Shown: positions 1 through 13,276 of the stretch, in pieces
Layout: every line of letters starts with the position of its first letter
How positions within the stretch are numbered: the first letter of the stretch is position 1
Origin: an uncultured Verrucomicrobiota bacterium
Lineage (GTDB): Bacteria > Verrucomicrobiota > Kiritimatiellia > CAZCOO01
Assembly (NCBI GenBank): GCA_964500395.1
Contig: CAZCOO010000005.1
Span: forward strand, 1-39,024
Reading direction: 5' to 3'
DNA length: 39,024 nt
Made by a program: the position numbers and the translations under genes
The notes under the pieces: generated by a model
What the model was told of the DNA's origin: nothing
Database searches by the model: none
The model's input: only the letters and a program-made list of their open reading frames with translations

Positions 1-745
1 GTCTCTGAATATAGTCGTCCAGCTCTCCCGTCAACACGGCGATATTTTTCGGCGTCCCGTTGCGAAGTCTCCCCCGGCCTGGCGCCATAAAGGCCTCTGT
101 GGCGATATAATCGGCATCCACGAGGCATGAGAACATCATCCTGGCAAAAAAAGACAAGCGGAAGGAAGCGTGGGACGGCGACTCCGGGTCTACCAGCGGA
201 GGAAACTCCGGCAACAACATGTCCGACAGCACTGCCGGCGCATGGTCTGTCGGAAAGACGTGTTTCAGCAGGCGTTGTTTCAACCCTGACTGGGTGTATC
301 CGTCATTGTAGTCCGGCAATCCAGCATGATGACCGGCAATCAGATAAGCAAACAGTTGTCCAAAAGGGCTTTGTTCTTGGATGCACTGAGCCCCCGCGGT
401 TGCGTGATCGACTTTTCCATGCATTTCCAGTGTATGGCTATCCTCATCGGAAGCCTGTTTCAGATATGCCTGGAACTCTTCGGAAAATTTCCCCAGATCA
501 TGAAGCAGCCCAATTGCGCGGGCCCATTTTCCCGAGAGTTGGGAGAGGGTGCCACCGGCGGGGAACATCGCTTTGGCGTACTTTTCACAAAGATGCGCAA
601 CCTTGTTCAAATGCCCGTGTTGGGCTTTCAGATTTTCGCAGGCCTGGCATTCACGTGCACAAGAATGGGAATACAGTGGTTCCCATTCGGAAAGCGGAGC
701 GGGTGTACCATCCGGGGATGTTTTGGAGTGGGCATAGAAAGTCAT
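1..745 (-). CDS. cas3: CRISPR-associated Cas3, N-terminal HD nuclease domain (gene starts at 745 and continues off the left edge)
   Basis: Not in the supplied ORF track because it has no stop in the window. My minus-strand translation from ATG 745..743 stays open for 248 codons: MTFYAHSKTSPDG..HLNKVAHLCEKYAKAM..AIGLLHDLGKFSEEFQAYL..HGKVDHATAGAQ..YLIAGHHAGLPDY..FFARMMFSCLVDADYIATEAF. The YAHS start and the LHDLGK, VDH, GHH and DAD..TE motifs are the Cas3 HD signature. GC is clearly lower than in the rest of the window. Confidence 0.85.
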   Translation of the reverse strand, partial: MTFYAHSKTSPDGTPAPLSEWEPLYSHSCARECQACENLKAQHGHLNKVAHLCEKYAKAMFPAGGTLSQLSGKWARAIGLLHDLGKFSEEFQAYLKQASDEDSHTLEMHGKVDHATAGAQCIQEQSPFGQLFAYLIAGHHAGLPDYNDGYTQSGLKQRLLKHVFPTDHAPAVLSDMLLPEFPPLVDPESPSHASFRLSFFARMMFSCLVDADYIATEAFMAPGRGRLRNGTPKNIAVLTGELDDYIQR

Positions 746-999
746 CGCTGCCCACGCTTTGTTCCAGGATGCTGCATGTCTTCTCTCTAGGGCATGACCA
801 TCCTTTACATCAACAAAAACTCTCCCGCGAACCGAGGGCTGCTGATTCCCAAGGCGACACAGGAACTTCTGCCATTATTTCATTACACGTTATCGTGCAA
901 ACGATTACGACAGCCCGCGAACCCGGACAGTATTACGTTACCGTTATCACAGTTTTTTATGCGCTATCGTTTCGGGTTATGCACGTGACGTTGCCGGAT
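746..999. promoter_or_regulatory. AT-rich non-coding region upstream of cas3; could also be a CRISPR leader for the repeat at 1000
   Basis: About 250 nt with no convincing ORF, the lowest GC in the window, and a T6 run at 953-958. Short motifs recur: ATTAC at 882, 904 and 932; CGTTATC at 888 and 942; CCCGCGAACC at 824 and 914. The cas3 promoter must lie here. Confidence 0.45.
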
Positions 1000-1028
1000 C
1001 TTCTCCCCACGCCCGTGGGGATGGTCTT
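1000..1028 (+). repeat. Solitary CRISPR-like repeat (type I-E-family shape): CTTCTCCCCACGCCCGTGGGGATGGTCTT
   Basis: This 29-nt unit has a CCCCACG/CGTGGGG stem followed by a GGGGATGG tail. That is the architecture of I-E repeats as I recall them (E. coli ..CCCCGCGCCAGCGGGGATAAACCG; Thermus GTAGTCCCCACGCGTGTGGGGATGGACCG). Only one copy is present. No second copy lies about 61 nt to either side. It overlaps the gloB stop codon by 1 nt. Confidence 0.4.
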
Positions 1029-1798
1029 TAGAACCGGTCCTTTCGCCGGCGGAGTTCGGCGAAGACGTCGGCGGCGGGGGCATCGGGCATGGCGAGGGCC
1101 TCGCGGACGGCGGGGTGGTCGGCGAGGAGGAAGATGTTGGTTTCTTTTTCCTGTCCGATGGTACTGGGGACGGTGGGCCGCCCCTCCCGCAGTTCCTTCA
1201 GCAGGTGCTCCCGGCGGTGGTGCAGCGGGGCGTAGCCGGGCAGAATGGAGGCGGCGAAGGCGTAGTTCTCTTCGGTGTATTCGTGCCCGCAATACACGAG
1301 CGTGTCCTCCGGCAGGGCGGCGAGTTTCCGGAGGGAGTGCCACATCTGCTGCGGGGTTCCTTCAAACAGGCGTCCGCACCCGCCGACAAAGAGTGCGTCC
1401 CCACTGAAGAGCACCGGGGGCCCGCCGCCGGGCGGCTCGTCGATGATGTAGCTGCAGTCGGCCGATCCGTGACCCGGCGTCTCCACTGCCCGGAGGTGGA
1501 GGCCGCCGCAGGCAAAGGGATCCTCTTCCCCGATCCGGACGGTGCTGCACGGAATCCGGTCATCGCGCGGGGCGACGACGGGGACGTCCCACGCCTGCAG
1601 CAGTTCGGGGACGCCGGCCATGTGGTCGCCATGATGGTGCGTAATGAGGATCCCGCACAGCGATTGTCCGCGGGCCTCCAGCCACTCCCGGACCGGCCTC
1701 GATGCACCGGGATCGACAGCGAGAACCCCGCCCTGCGGGCAGGGTGCGAGGTAGATGTAATTGTCCGTGCGGGCGGGCAGGATTGCGATATCGGTCAT
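1028..1798 (-). CDS. gloB: Hydroxyacylglutathione hydrolase (glyoxalase II), MBL fold
   Basis: [17 protein letters not shown].., the ITHHHGDHMAG metal motif, TPGHGS, and CGHEYT with the C-terminal HAGH-type tail. I place the start at the internal ATG 1798, which forms an ATGA overlap with the upstream gene's stop. The 33-aa N-terminal extension in the ORF track looks like read-through. Confidence 0.9.
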   Translation of the reverse strand: MTDIAILPARTDNYIYLAPCPQGGVLAVDPGASRPVREWLEARGQSLCGILITHHHGDHMAGVPELLQAWDVPVVAPRDDRIPCSTVRIGEEDPFACGGLHLRAVETPGHGSADCSYIIDEPPGGGPPVLFSGDALFVGGCGRLFEGTPQQMWHSLRKLAALPEDTLVYCGHEYTEENYAFAASILPGYAPLHHRREHLLKELREGRPTVPSTIGQEKETNIFLLADHPAVREALAMPDAPAADVFAELRRRKDRF

Positions 1799-4790: not shown

Positions 4791-6101
4791 TCAGCGGCTG
4801 ACCTGCTTGGAGACGAGTTCCTGCGGGATTTCGCCCTGCACATTGGGTCCCACATACACCTGGCGCGGGCGGCCGATGCGGGCCTCGCTGCTGTTGCGCT
4901 GCTCCAGCCAGTGGGCAATCCAGCCCGGGAGCCGGCCGATGGCAAACAGGACGGGGAACATCTTTACGGGGAAGCCCATGGCCCGGTAGGTGATGCCGGT
5001 GTAGTAGTCCACATTGGGATAGAGGTTGCGCTCCTTGAAGTAGTCGTCGTTGAGCGCCGCCTCCTCGAGTTCCATGGCGATATCCAGGAGCGGATCTTTG
5101 GTCCCGAGGGTTTCCAGGACTTCTTTGCAGGACTGTTTGGCGATCTTGGCCCGCGGGTCGTACGCCTTGTATACGCGGTGTCCGAAGCCCATCAGCCGGA
5201 ATCCGCTCTCTTTATTCTTGGCCATCTCCACGACTTTCTGCACGGGGATGTTTTCGTCGTGGATCTGCTGGAGCATCTCCACCACCTTCTGGTTCGCGCC
5301 GCCGTGGAGCGGACCCCAGAGCGCGCTGATGCCCGCGGAGATGGAGGCGTAGAGGTTGGCTCCGGAGCTGCCCACCATGCGCACCACCGAGGTGGAGCAA
5401 TTCTGCTCGTGATCGGCGTGGAGGATCAGCAGCTTGTTCAGGGCCGTGACATGGGTCGGGTCCAGCTCGTATCCGTTGACCGGCGAGTAGAACATCATGT
5501 TGAGAATGTTTTCACAGAAGTTCAGCCGGTACTGCGGGTAGACGTAGGGTTCGCCGACCGACACCTTGTGGGCATAGGCCGCCAGGGTGCGGACCTTGGA
5601 CATCAGCCGCGTGACCGTGATGTCCATCTGCTCGTCGGAGCACTCCAGTTCCGGATAGAAACTGTTCAGGGACTGCACCGTAGCCGACAGGATGGCCATG
5701 GGGTGGGCCCGTTCCGGGAACCGGTGGAAGAAGGTCCGCATGCCTTCGTGAATCATTGCGTGCTCATTGAGCAGTTGCGTGTAATTGCGGGCCTCGTCGT
5801 CGGTGGGGAGCTTGTTGTGGATCAGCAGGTAGGCGACGCGCTTGAAGCTGAGCTTGTCGGCCAGCTCACCGATCGCGTAGCCGCGGTGGCGCAGCGTCCC
5901 CTCTTCCCCGTTGATGAAGGTGATGCCGCTTTCGCAGGAGCCCGTGTTTACGTAGCCGGGATCGAGCGTAATAAACCCGGTATCGCTGCGGAGCTTGCGA
6001 ATGTCGATGGCGCGCTCGCCCTCGGTCCCCTCCAGGATATCCATGGTATAGGTTTTATCATCGTACTCCAGCTTTGCCTGTCCGATTACTTTAGCGTTCA
6101 T
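4791..6101 (-). CDS. gltA: Citrate synthase (type II)
   Basis: MNAKVIGQAKLEYDDKTYTMDILEGTEGERAIDIRKL.. and the signature MGFGHRVYKAYDPRA. The start is the internal ATG at 6101; the ORF-track N-terminal extension is unsupported. Confidence 0.93.
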   Translation of the reverse strand: MNAKVIGQAKLEYDDKTYTMDILEGTEGERAIDIRKLRSDTGFITLDPGYVNTGSCESGITFINGEEGTLRHRGYAIGELADKLSFKRVAYLLIHNKLPTDDEARNYTQLLNEHAMIHEGMRTFFHRFPERAHPMAILSATVQSLNSFYPELECSDEQMDITVTRLMSKVRTLAAYAHKVSVGEPYVYPQYRLNFCENILNMMFYSPVNGYELDPTHVTALNKLLILHADHEQNCSTSVVRMVGSSGANLYASISAGISALWGPLHGGANQKVVEMLQQIHDENIPVQKVVEMAKNKESGFRLMGFGHRVYKAYDPRAKIAKQSCKEVLETLGTKDPLLDIAMELEEAALNDDYFKERNLYPNVDYYTGITYRAMGFPVKMFPVLFAIGRLPGWIAHWLEQRNSSEARIGRPRQVYVGPNVQGEIPQELVSKQVSR

Positions 6102-8081: not shown

Positions 8082-10607
8082 TCAGCTCTTTTTGGGCTTG
8101 CCGGTCTTTTCCGCCGCGGGGGCCGGATCTTTGTGCCAGAGCAGCATGACCGGGGTGGCCACAAAGATCGAGGAATAGGTCCCCACCAGGATGCCGATAA
8201 AGAGGGCAATGGCAAACTCGTGAATGGCGCCGCCTCCCAGGATGAGCAGCATCACCACACTGAGCAGCGTGGTGATCGAGGTCAGCAGGGTCCGGCTCAA
8301 GGTCTGGTTGATGCTGAGATTGGCGATCTCGGAATACGGTTTGCCCTTGATCAGACTCAGGTCCTCTCGAATGCGGTCGAAGACCACAATGGTGTCGTTG
8401 ACCGAATACCCCACGATCGTCAGCAGGGCGGCGACGATGGGGAGGCTCAACTGGTTGCCGAGCAGGCAGTAGACCCCGACGGTAATGAGGACATCGTGCA
8501 CGAGGGCCGCGATGGCCCCGATGGCAAAGGCGAACTCAAACCGGAATGAGATATAGATCACGATTCCGATGAGAGCCGTGACAATGGCCCAGACCCCTTT
8601 CTTGCGCAGTTCCTCGCCCACCTGGGGGCCGACACTGTCTTCCTTGATCAGGGTGTAGCCCGCCGTATCGTAGGTCTGCTCGATGGTGTCGCGGGCCGTA
8701 GCGCCCTCGTCGAACCCGACCTTGATCTCGAGAAACTCGTCGATCCCCTCGTCATCCCCGGCGCCGAGTTCCTGGTGATACTGGATGAAGGCGCCTTCCA
8801 CGCCCGCCTTCTCCAGGGTTTCGCGAACGTCATCCACCGACTGGCGGTCGTCGTAGCGGAAGGCCAGGGAGGTTCCCCCCGTGAAATCCACGCCAAAATT
8901 ATCCGCCCCGCGATACATAAACACGCCCCAGGTCGCTACGATCAGGATTGCGCTGAGGGCCAGGGCGACGAACCGCTTGTCGGTGAAGCGGATTTTCGTG
9001 TCCTGCACGATGCGGAGCATGCGGAGCTTTTCCACCCGGCCGCCCCGTGCCAGCCAGTCGAAGAACATGCGGGTCACGACCAGCGCGGTGTACATGCTCA
9101 CGATGATGCCTGCACTGAGGGTGACGGCAAACCCGCGGATGGGGCCCGACCCCTGCCAGAAGAGAATGACGGCAGTGATGAGGGTGGTGATATTGGCGTC
9201 GAAAATCGTGCTGAATACCTTGTCGTACCCGGCGGTCACGGCGTGGGCAAAGGTTTTGCCCGCCCGCTGTTCCTCGCGGATCCGCTCGAAGATCAGGACG
9301 TTTGCATCCACGGCCATGCCGATGGTGAGCACGATACCGGCGATCCCGGGCAGGGTCAGGGTGGGCAACTGGGCGCCGCCCCCGCCGGGCGCCCCCGTGA
9401 AGAGCCCGAGAAAACCGGAGGCAATCACCATCCCCAGGGGCAGCAGGAGCATATCCAGCACCAGGGCCGCATTGGCGACAATCCCGGCGAGCCGGTAGTA
9501 GAGCAGCACAAACAGCACCACCGCGATGGCCCCGTACAACAGCGCGCGCATGCCGCTGTCGATGGAATCTTTGCCCAGGGTGGGATCGACGGACCGGGTC
9601 TCCACGATATTGACGGGCGCGGGCAGAGACCCCGCCTGCAGCACGTTGGCCAGGCGCATGGCCTCGGGCACGCTGAACTGCCCGGTGATCTCGGCGCGGC
9701 CGCCGAGGATTTCCTCGTTGATGCGCGGCGCGGAATAGAGGGTATCGTCCAGGACGATCGCCAACAGGCGCCCCACATCGCTGTTGGGATTCTTGGGCCC
9801 GCGGGGGGCATAATCCCGCGTGATGCGGGCAAAGCGCTTGGTCCCTTCGCCGTCGAGTTCGAGGGTCACCCGCGGGGCCCGGGTGACCTGGTGGTAGGCC
9901 ACGTCGGCGTCGACCACCGCCTCGCCCGTAAGCTGCCGGCGCACCTCTACGTAATAGGGCCGGTACACGGTGTTCCCGTCGCGGGTCTCGTTTTCCTCCA
10001 GCATGAATTCGCAGCCGGGCTTGTACTGCCACTTGCGCAGGCGCTCGTAGTAGTCCTGATCCATCTCCGCATCGGGCACGGACTCAAAATCGCGGGCGTA
10101 GACGTCGCCGGTCTGGCTGATCTGGAACCCGGGCGGAGCCAGCCCCTCCTCAAACAGCTCCTGCGTCCATTCCGAGCTGCGCTCGTGGACCAGGCGAAAT
10201 TCCAGGAAGGCCACGCTCATGATGGCCTGGCGCGCGGCGCGGCGCTTCTCTTCGTCGACCCCCGGGAGCTGAACCACGATCCGCTCGCGGCCCTCGTGGG
10301 TGGTGGCGTAGATGATCGGTTCCTCAATGCCGAGCCCGTCCACACGATTGCGGATGACCTCTACGGCATTATCCTGGGCCTTGTCGGCCGCCTCGTTGAC
10401 GCGTTCCCGCAGGGTCTCCCCGGTGATGTCGGGGGTCTCCTCCCGGATCTGTTCCCGGATGCGTTCGCGATCGATTTCGACGGTAAAACTGGTCCCGCCC
10501 TTGAGGTCCAGCCCCAGCTTCACTTTTTCCTGGGGCGGCCACACGATGGAGAGGGACCAGGCGGTCAGACCGACGAGAATGAGCCATTTGACAGTGGTTT
10601 TGTTCAT
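8082..10607 (-). CDS. secDF: Fused protein-export membrane protein SecD/SecF
   Basis: 841 aa: MNKTTVKWLILVGL..LGLDLKGGTSF, then a second GVDFTGGTS module. Two 6-TM RND-like blocks. Confidence 0.92.
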   Translation of the reverse strand: MNKTTVKWLILVGLTAWSLSIVWPPQEKVKLGLDLKGGTSFTVEIDRERIREQIREETPDITGETLRERVNEAADKAQDNAVEVIRNRVDGLGIEEPIIYATTHEGRERIVVQLPGVDEEKRRAARQAIMSVAFLEFRLVHERSSEWTQELFEEGLAPPGFQISQTGDVYARDFESVPDAEMDQDYYERLRKWQYKPGCEFMLEENETRDGNTVYRPYYVEVRRQLTGEAVVDADVAYHQVTRAPRVTLELDGEGTKRFARITRDYAPRGPKNPNSDVGRLLAIVLDDTLYSAPRINEEILGGRAEITGQFSVPEAMRLANVLQAGSLPAPVNIVETRSVDPTLGKDSIDSGMRALLYGAIAVVLFVLLYYRLAGIVANAALVLDMLLLPLGMVIASGFLGLFTGAPGGGGAQLPTLTLPGIAGIVLTIGMAVDANVLIFERIREEQRAGKTFAHAVTAGYDKVFSTIFDANITTLITAVILFWQGSGPIRGFAVTLSAGIIVSMYTALVVTRMFFDWLARGGRVEKLRMLRIVQDTKIRFTDKRFVALALSAILIVATWGVFMYRGADNFGVDFTGGTSLAFRYDDRQSVDDVRETLEKAGVEGAFIQYHQELGAGDDEGIDEFLEIKVGFDEGATARDTIEQTYDTAGYTLIKEDSVGPQVGEELRKKGVWAIVTALIGIVIYISFRFEFAFAIGAIAALVHDVLITVGVYCLLGNQLSLPIVAALLTIVGYSVNDTIVVFDRIREDLSLIKGKPYSEIANLSINQTLSRTLLTSITTLLSVVMLLILGGGAIHEFAIALFIGILVGTYSSIFVATPVMLLWHKDPAPAAEKTGKPKKS

Positions 10608-12331: not shown

Positions 12332-13276
12332 TCACTCCGCCCCCGGTCGCTTCAACATGCGCTGCAGGCGGGCCGCGGTGAGGTTGAACCGCCTGGCAAA
12401 ATGCCGGGACTCGGCATCCCCGGATTCTTCCAGCTCCACCGGGAAATCGCCGGCGCCGAGACGCGTCAGGGCTTCGGCCCACGCGGCCCGGCGGCGGTCG
12501 TCCGCCCTCTTCCGCCACACAAGAAGACCCGTCATACCGGCTCCCAGGAGAATCAGAAGCCCCCCGATTCCCCCCTGCACGGTGCCGAAGGCCCGGTTTC
12601 GAATCCCGACTGCCCGCTCCTCTCCCTGCTCGACGATTCTGTGCAGCCGGGCCTCGAGCCGGTGGGCGAGCGCCTCCTTCAACGCCCGCTCATTGACCGA
12701 CACACACACCATCCGCTCCGCCCCCTCTACCCGGCGGGCGACGGAAAAGACTTCCATGCCGGGGAACTGCCGGGTATCCGGCGTCCGATGGGTCCAGGCA
12801 ACGGATCCGGAAGGGGGACGCGGATGGAGGGTATCCCGCCAGGCCGGCATCGCTTTATGCCACCGGTACAGCGACCGCTCCGCGCGGGGAATCACTCGTT
12901 CCGCCAGAATGTCAGGGCCGTCCCACACCGCGATATGATGAGGGACACGGGGCCCGTCGCCGGGCTCCGGCGACAGGAGGGACCGGCTCAGCGAGTCCAG
13001 AATCCGGCGCATCTCCTCCGCACCGGACGCGCCCTGCAAACGGAGGGACAGCAGCTCGGCGAGCCCCCGGGCCCGGGACCGCACCAACGCCTCCATCCGA
13101 TCGGCGAGGGCATCCCGATCCCAGCGGGACAGTTCGCGGAGGCGTTGCCTTGTCATCTCCTGGTGCGCGGCATGCAGTTCGCCCGCAGCCTGGAGAGCGA
13201 CAAGCAGGGACCCCGCGCCCATCAGGCCCAGCAGAACCAGGCCCGCTATAGCCGTACGCTTTGGGAATCCGCCCAT
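12332..13276 (-). CDS. Membrane sensor-like protein: TM, periplasmic domain of about 200 aa, TM, HAMP, with no output domain
   Basis: TM1 is TAIAGLVLLGLMGAGSLLVAL and TM2 is GGIGGLLILLGAGMTGLLVW. A HAMP-like segment follows (RKRADDRRRAAWAEALTRLGAGDFPVELEESGDAESRHFARRFNLTAARL), and the protein ends about 10 aa later. Confidence 0.6.
   Translation of the reverse strand: MGGFPKRTAIAGLVLLGLMGAGSLLVALQAAGELHAAHQEMTRQRLRELSRWDRDALADRMEALVRSRARGLAELLSLRLQGASGAEEMRRILDSLSRSLLSPEPGDGPRVPHHIAVWDGPDILAERVIPRAERSLYRWHKAMPAWRDTLHPRPPSGSVAWTHRTPDTRQFPGMEVFSVARRVEGAERMVCVSVNERALKEALAHRLEARLHRIVEQGEERAVGIRNRAFGTVQGGIGGLLILLGAGMTGLLVWRKRADDRRRAAWAEALTRLGAGDFPVELEESGDAESRHFARRFNLTAARLQRMLKRPGAE

Follow-up and report, generated by a model that had tools for sequence, protein, structure and literature searches.

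A partial type I-C cas3 gene in a low-GC segment at a contig edge beside gloB in an uncultured Verrucomicrobiota bacterium

In type I CRISPR-Cas systems, target-bound Cascade recruits Cas3, the helicase of which reels the non-target strand into an HD site that cuts it. An array period of 61 nt is a hallmark of subtype I-E, and the 3' tail of repeats of the I-E family gives the 5' handle of the crRNA. In I-E loci that have their array upstream of cas3, the sense strand of the array points away from that gene. Solitary repeats are also found next to cas genes, where they belong to regulatory RNAs of the CreR type and similar solitary-repeat RNAs. For the gene considered here, a PDB search at E ≤ 0.01 matches two entries only, namely 8G9U chain P and 8ZNS chain A, both with E of about 3e-22. 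These two entries are NlaCas3, the type I-C Cas3 of Neisseria lactamica (PMC11417383, the paper depositing 8ZNS).

The gene lies at the very start of a 39,024-nucleotide stretch of DNA from an uncultured Verrucomicrobiota bacterium (the window), and its features are collected in Table 1. It begins at the ATG at position 745, which is the first start codon past the upstream in-frame stop, and runs for 248 residues toward base 1 of the window, without a stop codon and thus with an open 3' end. The sequence-only reading that drew attention to this region had argued that a cas3 5' end was missed by the ORF track because its frame leaves the window, and an ORF listing that allows open ends recovers exactly such a gene. 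Because base 1 of the window is also base 1 of its contig (C5), it is the end of the contig that truncates the gene, and not merely the edge of the window. The annotation is thereby corrected: a genuine defence gene was concealed at the contig edge.

Table 1. Features at the left end of the window (strand relative to the window; residue numbers are those of the cas3 translation)
Feature	Position	Strand	Basis or remark
cas3, first 248 codons	2..745	-	open-ended ORF; TIGR01596; PF18019; PADLOC Cas3c; PDB 8g9u_P and 8zns_A; invariant catalytic columns
Clade-specific N-terminal extension of cas3	residues 1-44		
HD nuclease domain of cas3	residues 45-220		followed by the start of the linker
Non-coding DNA upstream of cas3, GC 0.51	746..999	.	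sigma-70-like site within
Solitary 29-nt CRISPR repeat, I-E family, with hairpin, 3' end degenerate	1000..1028	+	closes the low-GC segment
gloB-type hydroxyacylglutathione hydrolase, first core gene	1028..1798	-	PF16123, PF00753
55 bases identical to the end of contig C139, branch point	1030..1084	.	contig-end comparison

The fragment matches the cas3_HD profile TIGR01596 with 96.2 bits (cut-off 43.45) over profile positions 4-177 of 178, and the Cas3_HD family PF18019 with 42.3 bits (cut-off 23.1). The motifs that had been picked out by eye as a full HD-nuclease set (YAHS, LHDLGK, VDH, GHH, and LVDADYIATE) are all present. In an alignment of the fragment with 11 full-length Cas3 homologues (12 sequences), they fall on invariant columns, and the invariant residues include H6, H45, H82-D83, D113-H114, H139-H140, D210, and D212. 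The metal-binding pattern of the HD superfamily (H...HD...H...HH...D) is complete, and the same residues align to NlaCas3. As part of a complete Cas3, the fragment would be expected, from its intact ligands, to supply the metal-dependent HD site for nicking and degrading the displaced strand.

The fragment continues for 28 residues beyond the HD profile, and these are in register with the linker of homologues in which the HD domain is fused to a helicase, including the invariant R228. This register match makes a fused HD-helicase the likely full form of the protein. Judged in this way, the complete gene likely has its HD domain fused to an SF2 helicase, with the helicase two-thirds beyond the contig end.

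The HD profile is preceded by an N-terminal extension (window 610-745, minus strand; residues 1-45) that is conserved in this Cas3 clade. Its invariant residues are F3, A5, H6, W21, E22, C33, C36, H43, and H45, which give a CxxC...HGH pattern that could be a metal binder.

As regards subtype, the PADLOC profiles for Cas3c score 120 and 108 bits on the fragment, compared with at most 45 bits for Cas3b and 32 bits for Cas3e. Alignment to the N. lactamica protein covers the HD domain (residues 45-220) only, as the helicase and C-terminal domains of the window protein lie off the contig. Within this domain there are several indels, and all metal-binding and catalytic motifs are common to both proteins, whereas the window Cas3 has about 23 extra N-terminal residues, with the conserved CxxC...HGH. 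By these comparisons, the fragment is an ordinary member of the type I-C Cas3 group, with no new mechanism.

Homologues were sought among 5.8 billion proteins, considering only those of at least 435 aa. The search returned thousands of relatives, of which 120 were listed. The listed proteins are 507-863 aa long (all but two at least 748 aa), carry fused DEAD, ResIII, and Cas3-like_C domains, and are 39-50% identical to the fragment, with about 49%-50% for the best full-length protein among the matches listed. No near-identical cas3 gene was found in public assemblies.

Five homologue loci, all metagenomic, were fetched (L003, L005, L059, L060, and L061, for proteins P0001, P0007, P0013, P0027, and P0080). 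These proteins are about 43%-49% identical to the fragment over 92%-98% of its length and have the same N-terminal extension. In all five loci, cas3 opens a complete type I-C operon, in which it is followed on the same strand by Cas5d, Csd1 (Cas8c), Cas7, Cas4 (absent from one locus), Cas1, and Cas2. In L003, the operon is succeeded by an array of typical I-C repeats with the ending ATTGAAAC, and in L005 a single I-C repeat with the same ending is seen downstream of cas2 before the locus ends. Since the architecture of the homologue loci is so uniform, we predict that cas5c-cas8c-cas7c-cas4-cas1-cas2 and an array should lie to the left of the window.

The closest I-C loci have some additional features. 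Directly upstream of cas3, four of the five loci have a divergent gene for a BrxR/WYL-type regulator (L004:714-1064, L005:7949-8827, L059:7976-8797, and L061:1-435), whereas the window has none there and has instead a lone I-E-type repeat and gloB. Between cas3 and cas5c, solitary I-C-type repeats occur on the strand opposite to cas3, next to PIN/RHH toxin-antitoxin-like gene pairs (L003 at about 2800-2840, and L005 at about 9440-9480 and 12400-12440; the same sites are seen in L004 and L006). One further repeat of this kind lies upstream of cas3 in L005. In appearance, these repeats resemble solitary-repeat or CreR-type elements described before.

The rest of the operon was sought in the genome bin, which comprises 278 contigs (2.78 Mb) and is 89% complete. 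None of its contigs overlaps the start of the window at any k from 15 to 127, and tblastn of two sets of I-C proteins against all 278 contigs found the cas3 fragment only. A Cas1 profile had no match in the genome (the same search finds Cas1 in seven of 14 control genomes). Of the two profiles that the sequence-only reading had suggested, the HD profile matches as reported above; for the cas3_core helicase profile (TIGR01587), the highest score elsewhere in the genome, 44.8 bits, stays below the cut-off of 102, and the sub-threshold matches are generic helicases. Proteins from loci that carry the I-E-family repeat were also used as tblastn queries, and no match to Cas7e, Cas5, or Cas1 was found in the genome.

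A k-mer scan of the genome for CRISPR arrays found only repeats that are not CRISPR, and no array of the I-C kind, the repeats of which measure about 32-33 nt and terminate in the ATTGAAAC handle, is present, although such an array may be unassembled. Three tandem hairpin-bearing units of about 50-60 nt occur at a contig start (G000:C217:1-260); their spacing is irregular and they are not a CRISPR array.

Related genomes offered no alternative route to the missing sequence. A scan of JGI metagenomes with six exact 8-residue peptides found no relative, and an exact-protein look-up of GloB gave no match. For the Tgt protein, which is also encoded on C5, no relative exceeds 70% identity, from which it appears that the species is confined to one assembly; the named matches of Tgt are from Kiritimatiellia and Verrucomicrobia, and the available reference genomes are related to the host only at the class level.

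The remaining cas genes, and probably arrays, had been expected to the left of the window. Such a layout is reasonable given the five homologue loci, but none of these parts was found in the 278 contigs, and the sole CRISPR repeat is on the right-hand side of cas3, its family being I-E rather than I-C. Helicase pieces, Cas1, Cascade genes of either subtype (I-C or I-E), and arrays are all absent from the other 277 contigs, and it is from the homologue loci that we infer a CRISPR-Cas island beyond the contig end. A lone cas3 fragment of this type should not be scored as a complete system.

It could also be that there is nothing more to find, because the gene is an orphan: either a stand-alone HD protein (Cas3'') or a remnant of cas3 that stayed behind when the locus was lost. 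A genome without any other cas gene is what this would leave, the adjoining solitary repeat resembles the decayed end of a lost array, and the regulator gene that precedes cas3 in most homologue loci is absent. Yet all 248 codons are open and every catalytic residue is intact, and the 28 residues that follow the HD profile keep the register of fused linkers, R228 included. Moreover, there is no stand-alone form among the closest relatives listed (proteins of at least 435 aa). We consider an orphan or decayed gene to be decidedly improbable.

The region that holds the fragment differs sharply in composition from the rest of the genome. In 300-base windows, GC is 0.51-0.57 to the left of about position 1050 and 0.67-0.73 to the right. 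Bases 1-1000 have a GC of 0.529, compared with a genome mean of 0.647 (z = -3.4), and only 13 of the 5123 1-kb windows of the whole genome are as low. Third-position GC (GC3) is 0.58 for cas3 and 0.83 for the neighboring gloB. The drop in GC to the left of about position 1000 that was read from the letters is thus real. To the right of the boundary are core genes, for a beta-lactamase-fold hydrolase, a macro-domain protein, citrate synthase, RecJ, SecDF, and Tgt. Regarding marks of mobility, there is no tRNA in the window and no integrase or meaningful direct repeat at the boundary, the one end of the segment that is visible.

Incidentally, many of the lowest-GC 1-kb windows of the genome (G000) are also at contig starts (the first 1 kb of C191, C149, C181, C20, C126, C268, and C57), which suggests that several foreign or variable segments break the assembly.

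The position of the boundary could be defined precisely through a second contig. The first 55 bases of C139, on the opposite strand, are exactly those of window 1030-1084, and beyond them the two contigs have nothing in common. Exact 55-base overlaps between contig ends are common in this assembly (54 matches from 556 contig ends), and as they are the norm here, the shared stretch can be recognized as a branch point of the assembly graph. The stop codon of gloB is kept in both versions, as TAA in the window and as TGA in C139, and the change from low-GC to core composition falls at 1029/1030, at this stop codon. The boundary that had been placed at about 1000-1028 is thereby refined. It should be noted that C139 is in the same bin, has a genome-typical GC of 0.645, and carries ordinary genes.

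The simplest reading of the branch is strain-level polymorphism, with part of the population carrying a foreign segment beside gloB. The foreign-composition segment is at least 1029 bp long and ends exactly at the gloB stop codon. In the population, gloB would then have two alternative downstream neighbors, the cas3 segment and C139, and it is this alternative neighbor that leads us to regard the cas3 segment as strain-variable. The segment is probably an accessory (defence) region derived from a donor of lower GC. Horizontal acquisition, as proposed by the sequence-only reading, fits both the foreign composition and the alternative neighbor in C139; the horizontal origin itself we infer from these two features.

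The same branch point might instead be where an error was made, that is, the assembly or binning may have produced a chimera in which bases 1-1029 come from another strain or organism of the sample, so that cas3 would lie outside the main lineage of this genome. The segment is short and contig-terminal, its GC departs from the genome mean by 12 points, and C139, with normal GC and in the same bin, competes for the junction through an exact 55-mer. The bin has no other CRISPR-Cas part, and the join coincides with a CRISPR repeat of 29 nt. However, the assembly used overlaps of 55 bases, which a 29-nt repeat does not reach, so the repeat alone cannot create the join, and there is no other copy of it in the bin. 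Exact identity over the last 55 bases of gloB, in which both versions retain a stop codon (TAA or TGA), is what would be expected of strain variants of one species and not of unrelated organisms. Furthermore, the family of the repeat, like the closest relatives of the Cas3, is from the superphylum of the host, to which the named Tgt relatives (Kiritimatiellia, Verrucomicrobia) also point. Overall, we regard a chimera as unlikely, while recognizing that a 1029-bp segment at a contig end and a graph branch counts against our preferred explanation and could originate from a co-assembled strain.

Considering all of this, we hold it likely that window positions 2-745, as the 5' third of a cas3 gene of type I-C, lie in a foreign, strain-variable segment, with the operon and array predicted to the left. 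The host population would accordingly be polymorphic for a CRISPR-Cas region beside gloB. For genome mining, the case illustrates how CRISPR-Cas islands can be lost from metagenome bins through their composition and through strain variability.

The segment is closed by the solitary repeat, which ends one base before the shared 55-mer. Its 20-nt core was found in 38 stretches of other genomes, mostly in arrays with a 61-nt period, and these stretches are chiefly from Kiritimatiellia, Lentisphaeria, Chthoniobacterales, and other Verrucomicrobiota. Against the consensus from Chthoniobacterales, 26 of 29 positions agree in the window copy, the mismatches being the first base and the last two. Compared with I-E-family arrays of Kiritimatiellia, Lentisphaeria, and Chthoniobacterales (for example L018, L025, L017, and L038), the matching positions include all of the hairpin and the four bases (ATGG) with which the 3' tail begins. 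The arrays differ from the window in that the window has a single copy, with neither spacer nor partner repeat, in a genome without an I-E cas gene. No second copy of the repeat exists in the genome, and a search of bases 1-1100 for a degenerate second repeat gave next-best matches of 15-18 of 29, within the range of shuffled sequences (up to 19). With one copy only, the site is not a CRISPR array, for which at least two repeats and a spacer are needed. The decay at its 3' end is like that of terminal repeats in arrays of the same family, and the repeat is probably what remains of the end of an I-E array; its subtype differs from that of the adjoining cas3.

The presence of a genuine I-E-family repeat beside the gene does raise the question of whether cas3 itself belongs to an I-E-like system, with positions 1000-1028 being the first repeat of a divergent I-E array and 746-999 its leader. 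The orientation would suit this, as the sense strand of the repeat faces away from cas3. However, the decayed 3' end fits a terminal repeat and not a first one, no second repeat follows in bases 1-1100, and the Cas3e profile scores far below that of Cas3c (32 versus 120 bits). Five genomes with arrays of this repeat were compared as well: four have no match to the fragment's Cas3 at E ≤ 0.001, and the match in the fifth is weak (E 7.8e-5, over 47 residues). As for the leader, a comparison with those of 17 arrays that have the same repeat revealed no common motif in the 110 nt upstream or in the 254 bases between the repeat and cas3, and the idea of a leader is not supported. An I-E affiliation of this cas3 thus seems highly improbable.

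Two other roles for the repeat were considered. A role of the hairpin as a terminator for gloB is not supported, as no T-run follows it on the gloB strand and its fold is not better than those of shuffled sequences (z = -0.86). As with CreR-type RNAs, a single repeat precedes cas3, here by about 255 nt; unlike them, it is of a family (I-E) that does not correspond to that of the gene (I-C), and no I-E Cascade is present. A CreR-type regulator was rejected because of this mismatch of subtypes and because its would-be guide, downstream of the repeat, is the 3' end of gloB, which also occurs in the C139 variant that lacks the repeat. Rfam searches of the repeat and the upstream region found no family, only sub-threshold noise.

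Within the stretch between the repeat and cas3, there is a candidate sigma-70-like promoter at 901-874 (minus strand), about 130 nt before the ATG, with nine of 12 consensus matches and an extended TG; it is a consensus match only. A 64-codon ORF at 794-988 (plus strand), divergent from cas3, lies inside the same low-GC intergenic stretch.

Regions in which the two subtypes are mixed recur in this group, as can be seen from I-E arrays that run into I-C repeats. In L022, at about 1415-1585 (minus strand), three I-C repeats with a 66-nt period, ending in GGATTGAAAC, come right after the last I-E repeat, and there is a hybrid at the join. In L024, one I-C-type repeat with the same GGATTGAAAC ending (5043-5071, plus strand) lies 10 nt past the last I-E repeat. 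The I-C and I-E systems of the group may thus share one array region. There is a slim chance that the low-GC patch in the window is the edge of such a composite I-C and I-E region in a deep-branching, Kiritimatiellia-like lineage. The I-E repeat would in that event be the exact breakpoint for gain or loss of the entire CRISPR region between strains (through recombination, or a deletion ending at the repeat); as an alternative, it may be a zero-spacer acquisition unit.

Finally, two loci from Kiritimatiellia (L038:3403-7998 and L051:3163-7909, both minus strand) encode, in this order, a HEAT-repeat protein, Cas7e (CT1975), Cas5, Cas1, and a protein of 270-290 aa with an RNase_H_2 exonuclease-like domain, after which comes an I-E-type array. 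In both, the gap between cas5 and cas1 is too small for cas6e, and these loci may represent an unusual I-E variant.
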